A stretch of 64,000 bases of DNA from Alphaproteobacteria bacterium. Its GTDB lineage: Bacteria; Pseudomonadota; Alphaproteobacteria; SP197. The stretch lies in contig CBDBNO010000012.1 in NCBI GenBank assembly GCA_965207785.1, forward strand, positions 187,808 to 251,807, in the 5' to 3' direction. Numbering within the stretch: position 1 is the first letter of the stretch; each line of letters begins with the position of its first letter. Positions 734 to 17,142 of the stretch are shown in pieces. The notes under the pieces were generated by a model. That model did not search any database, was not told the origin of the DNA, and saw only the letters and a program-made list of their open reading frames with translations. The translations under genes and the position numbers were made by a program.

Positions 734-913
734 ACTCCTTCATGGACCCGCACCATGGTGCAGCAGAACCGACAGGCGGCCTATGCGGTCACCCGAAAAA
801 CACCCTGCTTGGAAAAGAAGAAGAGACCCTGGAGGCATCCGCACTCTCCCGGTCTCTCCGGGGAATCAGCACGGATCAATGTGGGAAAAGGCGGCCTCGG
901 CCGACCGGAACAA

Positions 914-1193
914 TCAGGGGTTCAACACGCGCGCGGCGAACAGCCACCCGCACAGACACCCCGCCAGCAGGAGCACGGCCGAAGCGAGGGTCGAGTCGGC
1001 GGCTCCCGCACCCGAGATCGCGAGAATGGCGCCGGCGACGAACATCAGGCGCGCAACGGGGAGCCGCCTTGCCTCCAGGGGCGCATTGGACCTTGCGCGG
1101 GCGAGCATCGGATACAGCAGTACCGCCAGCACCACTGCCTGCAAGGCGAACGACCAGAAGGCGAAGCGCCACAGGCCAGCGGTCGCGAACGCG
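914..1193 (-). pseudogene. MFS-type transporter gene, distal fragment (TM6 to about TM8), cut off from its 5' part by the IS
   Basis: The minus-frame translation ...AFATAGLWRFAFWSFALQAVVLAVLLY...AGAILAISGAGA... is made of TM-like helices. It continues in frame from the 4486..5000 fragment once the IS and one TSD copy are removed. The frame stops at 914 after about 270 residues, which is short for an MFS protein. Confidence 0.6.
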
Positions 1194-1262
1194 TGCAATA
1201 TTCCTGCACACTTGACGGTGATTCCTGGAACACTTGACGGCGAATCCTGCCGCACTTGACGG
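1194..1262. repeat. IS right-end (istB-distal) terminal repeat array, 3 copies of CACTTGACGG
   Basis: CACTTGACGG occurs at 1208-1217, 1231-1240 and 1253-1262, spaced about 22 bp apart. Multiple terminal repeats are typical of the IS21 family. Confidence 0.85.
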
Positions 1263-1597
1263 CTGAGGTGGCGCCATCTTCGTTCCCTTGTGCGCGTCTT
1301 GGGAGACCTCCCTGTTGGTTGGTTGGGTTGCTGGCCGGAGGCCAGCCGGGTGCGAGCGTATGCGAGCCATTTCTTCCATTCAACAGCCGGCGAACGCGGC
1401 GGCTGGCCCTTTCCTGAGGCATGGCCGCCGCGCGTTCCGGTCCTGGGAACGGCGCCCAGGCGCCGCAGGCGCCCATGGACCCGGCCGCCAGGCCGGGCTC
1501 GCTTGAGGGACCGTTGTCGGGAGGCGGCAACGCGAGAAGGCCGACCTGATGGTGCCGGGTGCCGGTGACGTTACCGCCCTCAACGGAGTTCTGCGGG

Positions 1598-1888
1598 TCA
1601 TGTGTCACGCCCGTAACCGAGCGGCGGATCGAGGTCCTCGAGGGTCTCGATGTCGGCCTCGGCCATGGCCTGCAGGCGCTCCCCGTAAGGGGTGTCGTGG
1701 AGCGTATCGGGAAGGGCGTCGAGGCAGCGGCGCCAGTGCTCCTGCAGGGCGATGAGTTCGGCCAGAGCATCGCGCCAGCGTTGCGCGCGCGAGCGCCGGT
1801 CCCGGGGCTTTCGGGTGATGACGGGACGGTGCCCGGCCTTGAGCCGTTCGCGGTATCGGCGCTGCTTCTCGGCGGGGGTCAGGGCCAT
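1598..1888 (-). CDS. Passenger ORF inside the IS, 96 aa, basic N-terminus and acidic C-terminus, unknown function
   Basis: The ATG lies 13 nt after the istB TGA, with a GGGGAG ribosome-binding site 7 nt upstream. Translation: MALTPAEKQRRYRERLKAGHRPVITRKPRDRRSRAQRWRDALAELIALQEHWRRCLDALPDTLHDTPYGERLQAMAEADIETLEDLDPPLGYGRDT. Confidence 0.55.
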   Translation of the reverse strand: MALTPAEKQRRYRERLKAGHRPVITRKPRDRRSRAQRWRDALAELIALQEHWRRCLDALPDTLHDTPYGERLQAMAEADIETLEDLDPPLGYGRDT

Positions 1889-1901
1889 GGCGGATCTCCC
1901 C

Positions 1902-2654
1902 TCATGCACCGCCCAGGGGCGGCGGCCGGTTGCGCTTGCGCTGGGATTCGCCGGTGATCTCGATGCGGTAGGCATTGTGGACGATGCGATCGAGGATGGC
2001 GTCGGCGATGGTGGGTTCGGCGATCACCCTGGGCCAGTGCTCCACGGGGATCTGACTGGCGATCAGCAGCGAGGCCCGGGCGTGGCGCTGCTCGACGATC
2101 TCGAGCAGGTCGCGGCGGCTCTCGGCGGAGAAGTTCTGCAGACCCCAGTCGTCGAGCAGCAGCAGCGAGACCCTGGCGAGCCGCCGCATGAGCCGGTAGT
2201 GCGTTCCCCTGTCGCGGGCGCGGGCGAGTTCGGAGACGAGTTCGGGCACGCGCCGGTAGAGCACGGATACCTTCTGGCGGCAGGCCTGATGAGCGAGGGC
2301 ACAGGCCAGGAAGGTCTTTCCGGATCCTGTTGGTCCGACGATGATCAGGTTGAAGGCCTGGCGGATCCAGTCGCCGGCGGCGAGTTCGGTCAGCGTGGTG
2401 CGCGTGATGCCGCGGCCGGCACGGCAGTCGACATCCTGGAGATCGGCGCGGATGCGCAGCTGGGCCTGGCGGAGGTGGCCGAGGTAGCTCTTGTGATCGC
2501 GGTACTGGACCTCGCGTTCGATCATCATGGCGAGGCGGTCGTCGAAGTCGAACTGATCGATGTCGGCGATGTCGCGCTGTTCCTCGAGGGCCTCGACCAT
2601 GCCGACGAAGCCGAGTTGCAGCAGGCGTTCGACATTGGGTTGACGCAGCGTCAT
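1902..2654 (-). CDS. istB: IS21-family helper ATPase IstB
   Basis: 250 aa with Walker A IIVGPTGSGKTFLACALA and Walker B LLLLDDWG. It overlaps the istA stop by 4 nt. Confidence 0.95.
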   Translation of the reverse strand: MTLRQPNVERLLQLGFVGMVEALEEQRDIADIDQFDFDDRLAMMIEREVQYRDHKSYLGHLRQAQLRIRADLQDVDCRAGRGITRTTLTELAAGDWIRQAFNLIIVGPTGSGKTFLACALAHQACRQKVSVLYRRVPELVSELARARDRGTHYRLMRRLARVSLLLLDDWGLQNFSAESRRDLLEIVEQRHARASLLIASQIPVEHWPRVIAEPTIADAILDRIVHNAYRIEITGESQRKRNRPPPLGGA

Positions 2655-4246
2655 GGGGTGTCTCCCTGGTTGTTGTCACGGTAGTAGTCCCCGCCCCTGA
2701 TGTTGCTGTGACGGGGGATGGTCTCGCGGACTTCCGGGCGTGGCGCCGGCGTCGGGATGCCGTTCCTGAGGCGCTCCCGGAGGAAGCCCGAGGCGAGGCG
2801 GTTGAGGTCGAGAGCCTCGCCACAGAGCGCCTCGAGGCGATCGGCGCCGTGGCCGTCGGCGAGACGGATCATGCCCTGCACGGTGGCGAAGGCCTGTTCG
2901 GGGAAGTCGCGGGAAGCGAAGCAGCGCTCGGCCCAGGCGAGGGCATGAGGTCCGATGCGCCGGGCCTGGGAGAGCAGGATGTTGCCCCAGTCGGGCTTGC
3001 GGATGTCGCGCACCGCCCGGAGGCGGTCGGGCATGTGTTCGGGGCTTGTGGCGTACTGGTTGGTGCCGCTCTTGAGACGGTGCACGGCGATGCGTTCGCC
3101 CTCCCTGGCGACGAAGATCTCGACCATGCGTTCGCCGACGCGGACGTCGACTTCGGCGCCGATATGGCGTTCGGGCGCGGAGTAGTGGTTGCTCTGGATT
3201 CGGACATGGCTGTTGGGTCCGACCTTGCGTTCGATCCATTCGCCCCATTCCCAGGGGTCCCGGGGCAGGGGCTTGAGAGCGGCCCGCTCGCTGGCCTCGA
3301 AGAGGTCGCGCCGGGTCGCGCCGCATGCCATCGGCGCCTCGTTCAGCTGTTCGAGCTGGCGCCGGATCGCGGCGTTCATGGCGTCCAGAGAGAAGAAGGT
3401 CTGATGACGCAGCGCGAGCAGGATACGCGTCTGGACGACACCGACGGCGGCCTCGACGGGGCCCTTGTCGGTGGATCGCCCCTTGCGTGCCGGAAGCACG
3501 GCGAGATCGTAGTGTTTGGCGAACTCGCGGAAGCTGGGGTTGAGCTGGGGATCCTCGCGGTCCGCCCTGGTGACGCCGGCCTTGAGGTTGTCGATGACCC
3601 AGCGCTCGGGACAGCCGCCGAACGCCTCCAGCGCCCGGCGGTGGGCCATCGTCCAGTATCGCACGCTCTGGTCGGGCACCGCCTCGGCGTGGATCAAGTT
3701 CGAATGCGCCAGCACGGCCACGAAGATCTCCACATCCTCATCGCCGCGGCCGCTCCTGAGGCTCAGGGTCTTGCCCGAGAAGTCGGACATGCCATAGAGG
3801 CCCGGCGCGTAGTCGAAGCGCGCCTGCGCCTGCCCGGGCCGTTCCTGCCGGCGCTTCTTGAGGAGCCCGCAGAAGCGGCTGTAGGTGTAGGCCCTGCCTC
3901 CTTGAGCCAGGGCCTCGTCGCGGTACTCGGACCACAGCTGACGACGCGTCAGGCGGGCGCGGCGGCGATCGCGCGGCGCCTCGAGTTCCTCGATGATCGC
4001 CTCCCAGTCGGGCTGCACCCGGTCGCTGTCGCGATCCGCCGCCGGATAAAGCCGGGCCCGCAGTGTGCCGTCGTCGAGATCCTCTGGCAGCGGCCAGGAA
4101 AGGCCTGCCGCCTCGCTGCGGGCCAGCACGTGCGAGACGGTTCCCGTGCTCACCCCGACCGCCACGGCGATCTCGTCCCGCGACAGGGCGTGATCGTGAC
4201 GGTGCCGAAGAATGTCCTTGATGTTCATCATGCCGATTCTCTTCAT
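2651..4246 (-). CDS. istA: IS21-family transposase IstA
   Basis: About 530 aa. It has an N-terminal HTH (ISRDEIAVAVGVSTGTVSHVL) and the DDE integrase core (DFSGKT...VLAHSNLIHAE...). The start is taken at MKRIGMMNIKDIL. Confidence 0.9.
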   Translation of the reverse strand: MKRIGMMNIKDILRHRHDHALSRDEIAVAVGVSTGTVSHVLARSEAAGLSWPLPEDLDDGTLRARLYPAADRDSDRVQPDWEAIIEELEAPRDRRRARLTRRQLWSEYRDEALAQGGRAYTYSRFCGLLKKRRQERPGQAQARFDYAPGLYGMSDFSGKTLSLRSGRGDEDVEIFVAVLAHSNLIHAEAVPDQSVRYWTMAHRRALEAFGGCPERWVIDNLKAGVTRADREDPQLNPSFREFAKHYDLAVLPARKGRSTDKGPVEAAVGVVQTRILLALRHQTFFSLDAMNAAIRRQLEQLNEAPMACGATRRDLFEASERAALKPLPRDPWEWGEWIERKVGPNSHVRIQSNHYSAPERHIGAEVDVRVGERMVEIFVAREGERIAVHRLKSGTNQYATSPEHMPDRLRAVRDIRKPDWGNILLSQARRIGPHALAWAERCFASRDFPEQAFATVQGMIRLADGHGADRLEALCGEALDLNRLASGFLRERLRNGIPTPAPRPEVRETIPRHSNIRGGDYYRDNNQGDTP

Positions 4247-4374
4247 CGCGCTCTTGCCTTCCGGTTCGATACGCGAACCGGTCTGACAGGGATGGAAGAG
4301 ACAGGGCACCTCGGAGATCCCGCTGGCCGCCTCGCCACGCCGCTCGGCAGGGCAGGGTCAGGCTCGGACCAGGA

Positions 4375-4485
4375 CCGTCAAATGCTCAGGATTCGCCGTC
4401 AAGTGTCCAGGAATCACCGTCAAGTGTTCCAGGAATCGCCGTCAAATGTCGTAGGAATCGCCGTCAAATGCGCCAGGATTTTGCA
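4375..4485. repeat. IS left-end (istA-proximal) terminal repeat array, 5 copies of CCGTCAA[A/G]TG
   Basis: Copies sit at 4375, 4396, 4417, 4439 and 4461, at 21-22 bp spacing. They are the reverse complement of the 1208..1262 array. Confidence 0.85.
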
Positions 4486-5000
4486 AACGCGCCACCGATG
4501 AGCGGTCCACTGAGCGCGGAGGCCGTCCATGTCAGTGAAAGACATGCAACAACTCTGGGTACGAGTCGATCCGGGAAGAAGCGGTTCTGGGCGATGAAGA
4601 CCAGGGCGACCAACGCTCCGCCGCCGAGTCCCTGCACCGTGCGGCCTGCAAGCAGGACCGGCATCGCCGGCGCCGCCGCGCACGCGATGCATCCGAACGT
4701 GTAAAGCAGCGTCGAAGCCAGCATGGCACGGCGCAGCCCGGCCCGCGCCACGAAGGCGCTCGCCGCCGCTGCGGCCATGACCGAGCCCATCAGGTAAAGG
4801 GCAAATGCCCAGCTGATGAGGCGCAGACCGCCGATATCTCCGATCGCCTCCGGGAGGGTCGTCGCTGCCAGCAACGTGTTGGCCGCATGCAACCAGATCG
4901 CCAGGCACATCACGAGCAGCAGGGGCAGGTGCCGGCGCGCCACCACCTCGCGCCAGCTGACGGACTGCGGATCCGGACCCGGCCGCGCGTTCTCCTGCAT
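4486..5000 (-). pseudogene. MFS-type transporter gene, 5' fragment (TM1-TM5), interrupted by the IS21-family element
   Basis: Translation MQENARPGP...LLLVMCLAIWLHAANTLL... shows MFS motif A-like VARAGLRRAML and TM4 motif RTVQGLGGGAL. It is transcribed divergently from soxR. Confidence 0.7.
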
Positions 5001-5041
5001 GGCGATTCTCCCGTTGCGATGCGCCTGAAGGTGATGCTAGA

Positions 5042-5068: not shown

Positions 5069-5551
5069 ATGCAGACCACGCGTTGGCAGAAAACCAGCCT
5101 CTCGATCGGCGACGTCGCCCGACGCACGGGACTCGCCACGTCGGCGCTCCGCTTCTACGAGGAAATGGCGCTGATCGAGTCGCTGCGCACGCCGGGCAAT
5201 CAGAGGCGCTATGCGCGTGACGTGATTCGACGGGTTTCGTTCATCCGTGCCGCGCAACGGGTGGGCCTGACACTCGAGGAGGTGCGCGCAATGCTCGACG
5301 ACCTGCCCGCGGGCCGGTCCCCGACCCGCCGGGACTGGCAGGAGCTTGCAAGACGCTGGAAACCATGGCTCGACGAACGGATCGCCGCCCTCGAACGCTT
5401 GCGGGACCAGCTTTCGTCATGCATCGGTTGCGGCTGCCTGTCGCTCGACAGCTGTGCTCTCTACAACCGCGGTGATGCCGCCGGCCGCCTGGGCCCCGGT
5501 CCGCGTTACCTTCTGGGCGATTCTCCTGAGGATCTCCAGACCCGGAATTGA
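5069..5551 (+). CDS. soxR: Redox-sensitive MerR-family transcriptional activator SoxR
   Basis: It has a MerR HTH (IGDVARRTGLATSALRFYEE) and the C-terminal [2Fe-2S] cysteine motif CIGCGCLSLDSCALYN. Confidence 0.9.
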   Translation: MQTTRWQKTSLSIGDVARRTGLATSALRFYEEMALIESLRTPGNQRRYARDVIRRVSFIRAAQRVGLTLEEVRAMLDDLPAGRSPTRRDWQELARRWKPWLDERIAALERLRDQLSSCIGCGCLSLDSCALYNRGDAAGRLGPGPRYLLGDSPEDLQTRN

Positions 5552-5618: not shown

Positions 5619-6008
5619 TCAGGGGTCGGGCGGAAGGAACGAGCTTTCGTCGCGCAGCGAACAGCGGTTTCCGTCCGGGTCGACGAAGTCGCCGACGGTT
5701 CCCCAGGTCTCCCGTCTGACGACGACGCGCACGCCGCGCGCCTCCAAAAGACGGGCGGCAGCATCGACATCGGCAACGTTGAACCTCAGCTTGACCGGGC
5801 TTTGCTCGATGGATCGCCCGCCCGGCATCGCCGTTCCGCCGGTTTCGACCATCAGGTAACTCCCGCCCATGTCCAGGCAGGTCAGCGTGGAATGCTCGTC
5901 ATCGAGCGAGAACATCTCCGGCAGTCCCAGAATCCGGCGGTAGAAGTCGACACACTCTTCGTACTGCTCGGTGAACACGATGACGCCGCTTCGCTTCAGG
6001 TCCATCAT
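5619..6008 (-). CDS. VOC-family protein (glyoxalase / bleomycin-resistance-like), 129 aa
   Basis: The single-domain VOC pattern (...CVDFYRRILGLPE...LRFNVADVDAAARLLEARGVRVV...GDFVDPDGNR...) is present. It lies in the lower-GC islet. Confidence 0.7.
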   Translation of the reverse strand: MMDLKRSGVIVFTEQYEECVDFYRRILGLPEMFSLDDEHSTLTCLDMGGSYLMVETGGTAMPGGRSIEQSPVKLRFNVADVDAAARLLEARGVRVVVRRETWGTVGDFVDPDGNRCSLRDESSFLPPDP

Positions 6009-6234: not shown

Positions 6235-6636
6235 TCAAGATGGCCGATGGGATGCGGCGCGCCGGACGCGAAAGATCGAATGGGCAGTAGCGGTCCGTAG
6301 CGTGGATACACGTACCCGGCGATCTCGGTGGTGGAAAGTGAAGTCGTCGATGCATGCATGCGAAATGAATCCGCCGTCAATGTCCCCCGCCGTGCCGTCC
6401 CGCATCGCCTGGGACAGGAAACGGGCGATGCGCTGCGTAAGGCTTTGGTTGGTTCCGGTTCCCTCGCCGCCCAAAGGAAGTGTGCGGACAAGATTGTGAT
6501 TCGGATACTCCTCGGCAAAGCGTATGGCGATCTGATACGCAGACATGAACGGGCGGTCGAGAGGGTGATCGGCTTCGTACTCTGGACAGCTCGCCAGAAT
6601 CCGGCGCAGATGATCAATATTGAAGTCGCGTCTCAT
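6235..6636 (-). CDS. Hypothetical protein, about 105-133 aa, no recognisable family
   Basis: The ORF is MRRDFNIDHLRRILASCPEYEADHPLDRPFMSAYQIAIRFAEEYPNHNLVRTLPLGGEGTGTNQSLTQRIARFLSQAMRDGTAGDIDGGFISHACIDDFTFHH... The C-terminal roughly 30 codons are Arg-rich and may not be real. A competing frame (6090..6617) overlaps it. Confidence 0.4.
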   Translation of the reverse strand: MRRDFNIDHLRRILASCPEYEADHPLDRPFMSAYQIAIRFAEEYPNHNLVRTLPLGGEGTGTNQSLTQRIARFLSQAMRDGTAGDIDGGFISHACIDDFTFHHRDRRVRVSTLRTATAHSIFRVRRAASHRPS

Positions 6637-6698
6637 TGGGAGTCAGTCAAGGTTCCTGCGAGGGAGACGCAGTCTACCCGAACGTGTTCTTGAACCGA

Positions 6699-7451
6699 TC
6701 AACGAATAGCGTTCCGGCGACGAGAGCGCTTGCGGAATCTGCACTCCTCGCGGAGAAAGCACCTTCGGCAGTTCGGCTTCGTCTTCTTACAGGTGGACTT
6801 TCCCAAGCGAAAGAGCTGGGCGTCGAGCTTCCATGACCCCTGAGGCATCATCTCCCTTGCGATGTCGAGAGCGGCCTCTGCGGTGACCATGTTGCCGGTG
6901 AAGACGCGGCCCAACACTCTTCGCACATGGATGTCCGCCTTGAGTTCACCGACCCCTTCAATCTGCTTGGTGTCATAGAGTATCCCGGCGGTCATCCGGG
7001 AAATCTGCGGTCCTACCCCCATCCGTTCGAGTCGCTTCTGAGTCACGCACGAGGATTGGTTCGTCCAGATGTTGCGAGCATCACCGCCATATCGCTCTAC
7101 GATTTCCCTGCCGATTCTCTGGACGCGGGCATGTGCAGCAGGGAACCGGTGGAGGTTGTGGCGACGACGTACCGTCAGGGTGTTCCACCTGCGAATTCCA
7201 ACGATCTCATCCCACAGATCACGCGGATCACCAAGATCGTCCTCGGCAAAACGACGGGCATTTTCCCAAACCAGGCCGACCCTCATCTGATAGTCGAGGA
7301 TGCACCCGAGCAAGAACTTGTTGGCTGACCGCTTGTCCGCCCGGCGGCCATTCAGACGGGAGAGGAAACCTGTGTGCATGGGGGGCTGCCTGCGACGCTC
7401 TTTGCGAATCAGCTTGCGAACGCGCTTGCACTTGGGGCTGCTTGGTTTCAT
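6699..7451 (-). CDS. Endonuclease III-like HhH-GPD DNA glycosylase with a [4Fe-4S] cluster loop and a Lys/Arg-rich N-terminal tail
   Basis: The Fe-S cluster loop CKKTKPNCRRCFLREEC has C-x6-C-x2-C-x5-C spacing. The HhH region reads GVGPQISRMTAGIL, and the catalytic Asp is kept in ADIHVRRV. The N-terminal tail is MKPSSPKCKRVRKLIRKERRRQ. The start has a GAAGGAAG ribosome-binding site. Confidence 0.75.
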   Translation of the reverse strand: MKPSSPKCKRVRKLIRKERRRQPPMHTGFLSRLNGRRADKRSANKFLLGCILDYQMRVGLVWENARRFAEDDLGDPRDLWDEIVGIRRWNTLTVRRRHNLHRFPAAHARVQRIGREIVERYGGDARNIWTNQSSCVTQKRLERMGVGPQISRMTAGILYDTKQIEGVGELKADIHVRRVLGRVFTGNMVTAEAALDIAREMMPQGSWKLDAQLFRLGKSTCKKTKPNCRRCFLREECRFRKRSRRRNAIR

Positions 7452-16042: not shown

Positions 16043-17142
16043 GGTTGCGTGATGCTGGAAATCGCCCGCGCATGGAGACGATCGAGAGCGCCATCGGCCT
16101 CAATGCGGGCCCTCGCCTGCCCGGCCCATTGGGGCATGGTTCCGGCAGTCTGCATGGGAAGGGAGTCGATCTCCCGCAGCGCCGCTTCAAGGTCTCCCGT
16201 GGCCACCGCCGCCTCGATCCTGCGAATCGTCGCCAGACTGCCGGTACCGGCGACCTCCTCGCCGTCGATGCGCCTGACGGTGACCAGACTCTCGATGTGG
16301 GCCAGGGTCTCGTCGACCCACCCGCTGGCCGCCGCCACCTTCAATGCACTGCTGGCGGACGCGAGCACGTGCCCCAGTGATTCCTCGAGCGCGTGATGGG
16401 TGGGAATGCCGGTGCCGGCATGACGGGCGAGGATGTCAAGGTCTGCCTTGATCCCTGGATCATCCGCCTCGAGGACGGCGACGGCCTCGTGTTCCGCGAC
16501 AAACGGCCGGCCGCTGTCGACGGCCTCCCGCAACTGGCCAACCGCGACGACGAACGCCGCACCGTGATCTCCGGACCGGGCGGCGAGGGTGTCCAGCATC
16601 TCGCGAAGGGTCGCCACCTCCCGACGAAGCATGTCGATCAGGCGGTCTCGTTCCCGGTCTGCGACGTCGGGGGGGTCGGTGTCACGGCCAGAATCAATCG
16701 GAGGCGGGGCATCGTTCAGGTCTTCTTCGAAACGCGCGATACGCCGGGCAAGTTCTGCAAGGTCCGTTTCCAGTCCGGCGCGGAACTCGCCTTCAGCGGC
16801 GACAGCGGCTTCCGCCGCATCAAGACGTTCCGCCAGACGCGTCACGGCGGGATCGATATCCGTCTCGCCCTCTTCCGCGGTGAGGTGAAACACACCTTCC
16901 TCGAGATCGGCAAGGCGCGCCGAGGTGTCGCGCATCCCGGACCACAGCCAGGCCAGACCGGCGACAAGGGCCGCCACCACCAGAATGAGAATCCCTGACG
17001 CCAACCATCCGGCGTACCTTGCCAGAGACCTCTTCGCGGCCAGCACCGGCCTCCTGGTCCAGGGAGCGTGGGTGGTACTGTCTCTTGCCGGCTCGCTGCT
17101 GTCGTCAGACGTCATGAATGTTCTCCGGCAAGAACGATGCAC
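16039..17142 (-). CDS. HemX-like membrane protein (COG4223, mitofilin-like), downstream of hemD
   Basis: One N-terminal TM helix is followed by a long Ala/Glu/Arg-rich coiled-coil region. The gene occupies the conserved position between hemD and hemY. Confidence 0.6.
   Translation of the reverse strand: MHRSCRRTFMTSDDSSEPARDSTTHAPWTRRPVLAAKRSLARYAGWLASGILILVVAALVAGLAWLWSGMRDTSARLADLEEGVFHLTAEEGETDIDPAVTRLAERLDAAEAAVAAEGEFRAGLETDLAELARRIARFEEDLNDAPPPIDSGRDTDPPDVADRERDRLIDMLRREVATLREMLDTLAARSGDHGAAFVVAVGQLREAVDSGRPFVAEHEAVAVLEADDPGIKADLDILARHAGTGIPTHHALEESLGHVLASASSALKVAAASGWVDETLAHIESLVTVRRIDGEEVAGTGSLATIRRIEAAVATGDLEAALREIDSLPMQTAGTMPQWAGQARARIEADGALDRLHARAISSITQP

Follow-up and report, generated by a model that had tools for sequence, protein, structure and literature searches.

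The 64 kb stretch of alphaproteobacterial DNA analysed here (64,000 nt of contig CBDBNO010000012.1, hereafter the window) contains, close to its first position, a complete insertion sequence (IS) of the IS21 family (1194..4485, minus strand; 3,292 bp) in which a third gene and a palindromic site follow the two genes usual for this family. The istA gene (2651..4249, minus strand), of about 532 codons from an MKRIG start (the mechanically listed open reading frame, or ORF, reaches 4309), encodes the transposase, with the Pfam domains rve (E=1.3e-9) and Mu-transpos_C_2 (E=2e-16) and an N-terminal helix-turn-helix (HTH), for which residues 31-70 give matches below threshold only (best HTH_23, E=0.004). 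The istB gene (1902..2654, minus strand) encodes the AAA+ helper ATPase of 250 amino acids (aa; Pfam IstB_IS21, E=9.8e-62), and its ATG overlaps the istA TGA in the ATGA at 2651-2654. Behind istB lies the gene of interest, ORF3 (1598..1888, minus strand), encoding a 96-aa protein of an uncharacterised family. Together with part of its ribosome-binding site and a two-armed inverted repeat around GGTAACGTCACC, it forms a 399-bp accessory cassette (1499..1897, minus strand) that is present in the window IS and precisely absent from the closest relative found.

The limits of the carrier are clear. The IS runs from TGCAAT... at 1194 to ...ATTTTGCA at 4485, with terminal inverted-repeat arms at 1194-1262 and 4417-4485 and several 22-nt subterminal repeats at each end (1208-1262 and 4385-4471). 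It is flanked by the hexamer AACGCG, once at its right, istB-distal end (1188..1193) and once at its left, istA-proximal end (4486..4491). Excision in silico of the IS and one AACGCG yields a single uninterrupted ORF with a hydrophobic, multi-pass product; because of the target duplication and the restored host ORF, the element is one genuine insertion, and a misjoined end is excluded. The DDE transposase has an rve core and an N-terminal HTH, the AAA+ helper is encoded directly downstream and translationally coupled, and the TG...CA ends come with subterminal repeats and a short target duplication, so that the carrier belongs to the IS21 family by every feature tested except gene number and length: it has three genes and 3,292 bp, where two genes and roughly 2-2.7 kb are usual. 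An earlier note on this DNA, made from its letters alone, had held ORF3 responsible for an unusual length of 3.29 kb. The length is correct, but the cassette accounts for 399 bp only and explains just part of the excess, because the element without it would still measure about 2.9 kb.

The istB stop codon (TGA, 1904-1902) and the ORF3 ATG (1888-1886) are separated by the 13 nt GGGGAGATCCGCC (1889..1901, minus strand), which contain a GGGGAG ribosome-binding site 7 nt 5′ of the ATG. ORF3 ends with TGA at 1600-1598, and its product is basic in the N-terminal half, where ALTPAEKQRRYRER is found, and acidic in the C-terminal half, which carries the motif PPxGYGRD. The earlier note had described a 96-codon ORF 13 nt past the istB TGA, with its own GGGGAG and with these two oppositely charged halves, and each of these details stands; the start is also placed suitably for the translational coupling to istB that it proposed. 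A mechanical ORF list gives a longer, 125-aa version that begins within istB, but the 96-aa start is the correct one, since all close homologues are 95-96 aa long and begin MALTPAEKQ. The GC content at codon positions 1, 2 and 3 is 0.78, 0.50 and 0.84 in ORF3 versus 0.72, 0.43 and 0.87 in istB, with a similar pattern in istA. A search of the window for a further copy of ORF3 returned only 16 aa of chance similarity (16678-16725), which lie within a larger ORF.

Evidence that ORF3 belongs to a unit of its own comes from the closest IS21 relative found (L093), which is 89% identical in DNA to the window IS across istA and istB. By blastn, window positions 3596 to 1898 correspond to L093 127-1821, and the alignment then passes straight to window 1498 to 1194, i.e., to L093 1822-2128, the counterpart (77% identity) of the native IS21 3′ region with its right-end repeats (1194..1498, minus strand), which ends ...ATTTTGCA. 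The insertion point lies 4 nt 3′ of the istB stop codon. On the minus strand the cassette begins AGATCCGCC-ATG, so that it is the IS backbone that supplies the GGGG of the ribosome-binding site, and the cassette ends ...CCCTCAAGCGA, 12 nt beyond the second arm of the inverted repeat. Window 1499-1897 is therefore a discrete, portable cassette inserted into an otherwise ordinary IS21 element. The right junction is the same in a cassette-bearing relative (L003; IstA 90% and IstB 97% identical), and DNA homology to the copies compared from IS110 elements extends from window 1889-1899 to about 1563-1569. Among the loci collected there is no second filled/empty pair, L093 alone being close enough. 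The cassette-bearing IS is active and still transposes: L003, L004 and L005 are 3,339-bp copies in one genome, 99.9-100% identical, each with its own duplication of 5-7 bp.

Some further observations concern these junctions. The istB gene of the cassette-less L093 (1066-1814) is split over two frames near residue 203, which could mean either that this copy is decaying or that the sequence contains an error; the right end of L093 is intact. On both sides of the cassette there are short, imperfect direct repeats, in the window at 1895-1905 (TGAGGGGA) and 1499-1507 (TCAAGCGA) and in L003 at 5975-5990 and 6420-6434 (TGAAAGG...TGAGGAA), and in IS110 carriers TGAGCGA-AGGAGAC stands immediately 5′ of the cassette. 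Such repeats may be the trace of a joining mechanism.

Besides the gene, the cassette contains a 12-bp near-palindrome (1564..1575), read as GGTAACGTCACC on the minus strand, which lies 26 nt past the ORF3 stop within the 24-nt sequence CCGTTGAGGGCGGTAACGTCACCG and is the sole such site in the IS. Sites resembling GGTAACGTTACC occur once in the 64 kb window (with one mismatch), versus 0.02 expected. The near-palindrome is part of the two-armed inverted repeat (1511..1588, minus strand), whose arms, at about 1562-1588 and 1511-1533, are predicted to form a long stem-loop: in the window as in IS110 elements, two palindrome units stand opposite each other with about 40 nt between them, and an equivalent two-armed structure is present in IS110-borne cassettes. 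A conserved 5′ flank, CCAYTGTA..., renders each unit asymmetric.

A palindrome of this kind accompanies the gene far beyond the window. In relatives it is found 15-27 nt past the end of ORF3, frequently a second time at +78 and in four copies in two loci (L010, L012), and in other carriers 33-59 nt upstream; plasmids have it on both sides, as two copies of CCACTGTAnnnGGTAACGTTACCG. Homologues below about 52% identity have CGTTACGTAACG and variants thereof, with a different half-site order, ending inside their own GGAG ribosome-binding site. The pattern GT[ATC]ACGT[ATG]AC occurs within -100 to +110 nt of the gene in 47 of 69 unique ORF3 variants, and most of the remaining ones have palindromes with one mismatch. 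Flanking sequence totalling 1.23 Mb has 12 such sites, a background of 0.002 per 210 nt, and the association with ORF3 is several hundred-fold above it. The second criterion used for the family was a palindrome with an ACGT core (GTWACGTWAC type) no farther than about 100 nt from the gene, and the window site conforms to it.

The first criterion is the protein itself, defined here with the window protein, which fits it, as the query: about 95-107 aa, with an N-terminal A-E-x-Q-x-R-Y-R and a C-terminal P-P-x-G-Y-G-R-D, both nearly invariant. A first, word-indexed search gave 348 homologues at E<=1e-3, nearly all of 93-107 aa, among which no Pfam domain and no name other than 'hypothetical protein' was found. 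A profile searched against 1.84 billion cluster representatives gave 2,066 clusters at 50% identity with E<=1e-3 and 774 with E<=1e-10. An alignment of 111 sequences has A6, R13, W38, G91, G93 and D95 as invariant positions. Known homologues come almost all from metagenome-assembled genomes (MAGs) and metagenomes, in bacteria of several phyla. IMG/VR contigs hold a few matches to the family, and tblastn against 72,556 plasmid records (with ORF3 and a distant homologue) and 50,697 phage records (with ORF3) gave none. In literature searches on a third IS21 gene and on accessory small proteins across IS families, neither this family nor such an IS21 gene was found described. Judged by these searches, the ORF3 family is a large, hitherto unannotated protein family.

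That the passenger gene is real, as the earlier note had supposed, is borne out by its coding GC pattern, by full-length homologues that number in the hundreds, with identities as low as 47%, and by purifying selection: pairwise between copies of different carriers, the ratio of nonsynonymous to synonymous substitution rates (dN/dS) is 0.07-0.45, with dS at 0.4-0.8. The AlphaFold2 model built with the family alignment is confident (mean predicted local distance difference test score, pLDDT, of 87) and all helical, with helices at 5-17, 34-57, 67-77 and 81-84 and a less ordered C-terminal tail; a basic stretch, RRSRA, runs straight into an amphipathic helix, with conserved L45, Y/W52 and L59. 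The structure and homology check proposed in the earlier note thus gave a confident fold and no known family or fold to go with it, ORF3 having no match in Pfam, NCBIfam, PHROG, PADLOC or PDB; as regards defence components, PADLOC matched neither ORF3 nor two of its homologues. Nothing supports the chaperone-like role that was also suggested there.

The carriers of the cassette were surveyed by a genome scan with the family alignment, which gave 314 confirmed matches; 80 were kept, corresponding to 77 distinct loci, and neighbouring genes were classed by tblastn, Pfam and precomputed annotation. Many ORF3 loci are multi-copy within one genome. In IS21 carriers, ORF3 lies on the same strand, just 3′ of istB, in many lineages whose IstB is only 25-50% identical to that of the window. 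As to the survey of IS21 copies that the earlier note had called for, the third ORF recurs after istB in these lineages; a scan of metagenome contigs with IstB found 25 IS21 relatives (IstB 37-90% identical; L093 is the closest of them), none of which has an ORF3 homologue. In one 5.3-kb IS21 element (L013; 1916-7245), a DUF3991-Toprim (primase-like) gene stands between istB and ORF3. One alphaproteobacterial genome (L013-L026, L031; OZ219747.1/OZ219746.1) has more than 15 copies of this element, and most of these copies have a 346-bp tandem duplication that creates a partial second ORF3.

Two lineages of IS110 elements carry ORF3: in one it lies 13-36 nt past the gene of the RNA-guided transposase, and in the second, of about 405 aa, it likewise follows the transposase gene. 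As judged from repeat boundaries, ORF3 is interior to the repeated IS110 units (1.77-1.84 kb), not at their edge. The ORF3-bearing IS110 elements of seven loci (L037-L042, L080; ends at 4720-4730 and 6490-6496) have a target of the form TTGnTGGnC-CT-TGATCn. In related copies, the ORF3 hairpin has outer arms, CCATTGATCA...TGATCAATGG, that are similar to this TTGATCA-like target.

Other carriers are of still different kinds. ORF3 stands directly before or after large serine recombinase genes, and one copy lies in an integrative island alongside integrase, PrimPol and D5-type genes. Contigs of 22-23 kb (L118-L122) consist of 7.8-kb and about 10.9-kb units, repeated in tandem and equipped with genes for a relaxase and MobC, and are read as putative small circular mobilisable plasmids assembled as concatemers; in these units ORF3 is divergent from a gene of 396-399 codons that has no family match and is conserved between the two plasmids. 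In a repeated element of about 2.7 kb (L034-L036, L043, L083-L086), a 260-aa protein without family match (6292-7074) starts 4 nt after ORF3, and the palindrome lies 48-59 nt upstream of ORF3. Some MAG loci (L081-L085) have Pfam DruA (DUF4338) beside or fused with IS66-/Tn5-type transposase genes (e.g., L083 3005-5724 and L082 11412-12291), and DruA looks like another recurrent accessory domain of transposons. No carrier gene was identified beside 11 of the 67 unique ORF3 proteins.

In a neighbour-joining tree of these 67 proteins, carrier types are interleaved. The window-type IS21 copies nest inside a clade borne by IS110 elements, which suggests that the window cassette was captured from such an element. 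The earlier note had seen in the third ORF a candidate for a new transposition-regulatory or host-interaction function. ORF3 is neither an IS21 invention nor a regulator specific to IS21, since the 25 IS21 relatives, L093 among them, are without it and the same cassette is found in unrelated carriers, namely IS110 elements, plasmids, serine-recombinase loci and an island.

What the cassette does can be addressed through the pairing of gene and site. We consider it reasonably probable that it is a portable accessory module made of a sequence-specific nucleic-acid-binding protein and its cognate site, expressed here by coupling to istB. The ORF3 protein, probably as a dimer, would recognise its own palindrome, most likely as double-stranded DNA and possibly as an RNA hairpin; a dimeric, sequence-specific binder is inferred from the symmetry of the site, from the basic region that continues into an amphipathic helix and from the changed half-site order in distant homologues. 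Gene and site would then form a self-contained regulatory unit. Where the site overlaps the ORF3 ribosome-binding site, the protein could regulate its own synthesis; where it lies downstream, as in the window, binding might stop or modulate transcription that proceeds from the transposase operon in the direction of the right end. In the window IS the protein would be made, through coupling, only while istA and istB are translated. The PPxGYGRD tail is the most conserved part of the protein, which suggests contact with a conserved partner, an idea that we offer as speculation.

Several points weigh against this proposal. ORF3 resembles no known DNA- or RNA-binding fold by sequence or structure search; the small nucleic-acid-binding protein that the earlier note had predicted from composition is supported indirectly, by the ACGT-core palindrome that accompanies the gene in nearly all contexts. 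Homology to basic leucine zipper (bZIP) proteins was considered and rejected, hhalign giving a probability of 0.4% against six bZIP domains. In the window, no promoter- or terminator-like signal was found around the site, and neither the istA promoter nor the ends of the IS have a second palindrome nearby. Nothing therefore points to direct control of transposase synthesis, and any benefit to the window IS is conjecture. In some copies, moreover, the palindromes extend to long hairpins whose arms are complementary yet non-conserved; such arms suit folded RNA or single-stranded DNA no less well than a duplex operator. Mismatches of the G-U type and of the C-A type are equally frequent in the arms, with no strand bias.

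The hairpins are the starting point for a different, rather improbable reading, in which the arginine-rich N-terminus binds the hairpin in the transcript. The protein would then repress itself at the ribosome-binding site, or stabilise or terminate the transposase mRNA when the hairpin is 3′ of the stop. The site is always on the same transcript side as ORF3, and in distant homologues the palindrome ends within GGAG, which leaves no room for a promoter before the start codon. Both classes of site would form the same ACGU tetraloop on different stems, and the complementary extension of the arms reaches a perfect 38-nt hairpin in one locus (L049). Yet the core stem is merely 4-5 bp, the extended flank in plasmids is conserved as sequence (CCAYTGTA...) and not as complement, and G-U mismatches are not in excess over C-A ones. 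Covariation in the arms is sparse, with double changes in 3 of 18 pairs only, and the folding energy of the 3′ region does not differ significantly from that of shuffled sequences (z = -1.8), nor does this region have an Rfam match. It is also unlikely, if somewhat less so, that the cassette is a selfish hitchhiker, in which ORF3 and its inverted repeat parasitise transposons and do nothing for IS21, being moved via the hairpin by a recombinase acting in trans (e.g., the RNA-guided one of IS110 or a serine recombinase) or with the help of ORF3. The ends of the 399-bp indel are sharp, falling in the ribosome-binding site on the 5′ side and 12 nt past the second arm on the 3′ side, and homology to other carriers ends at the same limits. 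Carrier type and ORF3 tree are incongruent, the window copy lying within the IS110 clade; the palindrome varies from one to four copies by apparent recombination between copies; and an ORF followed by a 3′ imperfect inverted repeat recalls integron cassettes. There is also a precedent in the ssr9 module downstream of the transposase gene of ISPpu9 (IS110 family), which is reported to make its own circles (PMC12288879). Against this, the dS of 0.4-0.8 between carriers makes the transfers old and rare, not ongoing, and neither a solo cassette circle, nor a clean target duplication at the junctions, nor a second empty/filled pair was seen among the loci collected. Hitchhiking alone does not explain purifying selection inside IS lineages, and in plasmids the position of ORF3, divergent from a conserved gene without family match, is like that of a regulator.

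The most sceptical reading, a chance open frame in the GC-rich non-coding 3′ end of an IS, or a misassembled IS end, can be given practically no weight. GC-rich DNA such as this does yield many long spurious ORFs in all frames, but these would not come with hundreds of full-length homologues, a dN/dS well below 1, coding GC and a confident fold; and the misjoined IS end that the earlier note had allowed for is excluded by target duplications around four independent insertions, the window copy and three copies in another genome. Two more specific roles were also set aside as general ones. In one plasmid ORF3 is followed by a gene for a 78-aa protein with a hydrophobic C-terminal segment, and toxin-antitoxin was considered, but the IS copies have no downstream partner gene. 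A recombination directionality factor for serine recombinases was likewise rejected, since most copies sit with IS21 or IS110. Returning to a protein that binds its own site, a more far-reaching version, which we regard as quite a long shot, would make the ORF3-hairpin unit a new type of mobile cassette or a tethering module for elements that at some stage are double-stranded DNA circles (IS21, IS110, serine-recombinase elements and small plasmids). The protein would bind the palindrome on the element while PPxGYGRD would recruit a conserved host machine (replisome, RNA polymerase, segregation or repair apparatus), promoting retention, targeting or expression of the circular intermediate, and the hairpin would double as the recombination site for moves of the cassette between carriers.

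The surroundings of the IS offer a few side observations. The two parts of the interrupted host gene lie at window 850-1193 and 4492-5010 on the minus strand and rejoin to an ORF of about 270 aa, whose putative product looks, from its hydrophobicity, like a multi-pass membrane transporter. Divergent from it, a 160-aa MerR-type regulator is encoded at window 5069-5551 (plus strand), with a C-terminal CIGCGCLSLDSC motif that we take to be like the SoxR [2Fe-2S] cluster signature; on this basis, the IS may have knocked out a redox-regulated efflux gene. A megablast of the whole IS against plasmids found short istB fragments only, and an Rfam scan of the IS gave nothing relevant.

Insertion sequences are usually taken to carry only the functions needed for movement. 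Here, mechanistically unrelated mobile elements have repeatedly taken up one small gene with a palindrome, namely elements that move by a DDE transposase and an AAA+ helper, by RNA-guided DEDD recombinases or by serine recombinases, and mobilisable plasmids. Should the module control or stabilise intermediates of transposition, it would represent a general, overlooked accessory function of mobile DNA, and the cassette-less L093 and the window IS provide a natural pair of IS21 elements without and with it.

Compared with known systems, the window element is a typical IS21 in the HTH, rve and Mu C-terminal domains of IstA, the IstB_IS21 domain, the ATGA overlap, the TG...CA ends, the subterminal repeats and the short duplication, and it differs in the third gene and palindromic site of the 399-bp insert after istB. 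As for the site, bZIP factors of eukaryotic type bind ACGT-core palindromes such as the T-box AACGTT, the A-box TACGTA and the PAR site RTTACGTAAY; their domain is marked by N-x7-R in the basic region and by a leucine zipper in heptads. The RRSRA stretch, the amphipathic helix and the ACGT-core sites resemble this arrangement by analogy only, since ORF3 has no match to Pfam bZIP_1 or bZIP_2 at E<=1, in addition to the negligible profile probability given above. With integron cassettes, the unit shares its extent, from the ribosome-binding site to just past an imperfect inverted repeat of some 80-100 nt on the 3′ side, the variable centre of this repeat and the reliance on upstream expression signals. 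The core sites of integron attC are RYYYAAC and GTTRRRY; the arms in the window, CCGTTGAGGGCGGTAACG... and ...CGTTGCCGCC...CAACGG, do not conform to them, and those of relatives read CCATTG...CAATGG around GGTAACGTTACC. Unlike in integrons, the same gene always accompanies the repeat, and neither an integrase nor a cassette array turned up, although no systematic search for IntI was made.

Two further comparisons are with modules of mobile elements. The ssr9 gene of ISPpu9, a small RNA gene confined to one IS, has been proposed to be a selfish passenger (PMC12288879); as in many ORF3 cassettes of IS110 elements, it is an optional module just downstream of the transposase gene, but the ORF3 cassette is protein-coding and occurs in at least five kinds of carrier. 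In IS605-family transposons, an Arc ribbon-helix-helix (RHH) repressor binds sites inside the transposon (bioRxiv 10.64898/2026.09.24.754181). It is likewise a small accessory protein inside a compact transposon, with homologues on other mobile elements, and the logic of a protein with its cognate site would be shared too if ORF3 acts as proposed. The two are unrelated in sequence and fold: RHH proteins have an N-terminal strand and then two helices, whereas the ORF3 model is all helical without such a strand, and ORF3 has no RHH/Arc match in Pfam, NCBIfam or PDB. The ORF3 site is not at the transposase promoter, and ORF3 is a putative repressor at most. The cassette family, itself undescribed, is thus of a kind that is already known, that of the accessory regulators carried by transposons.

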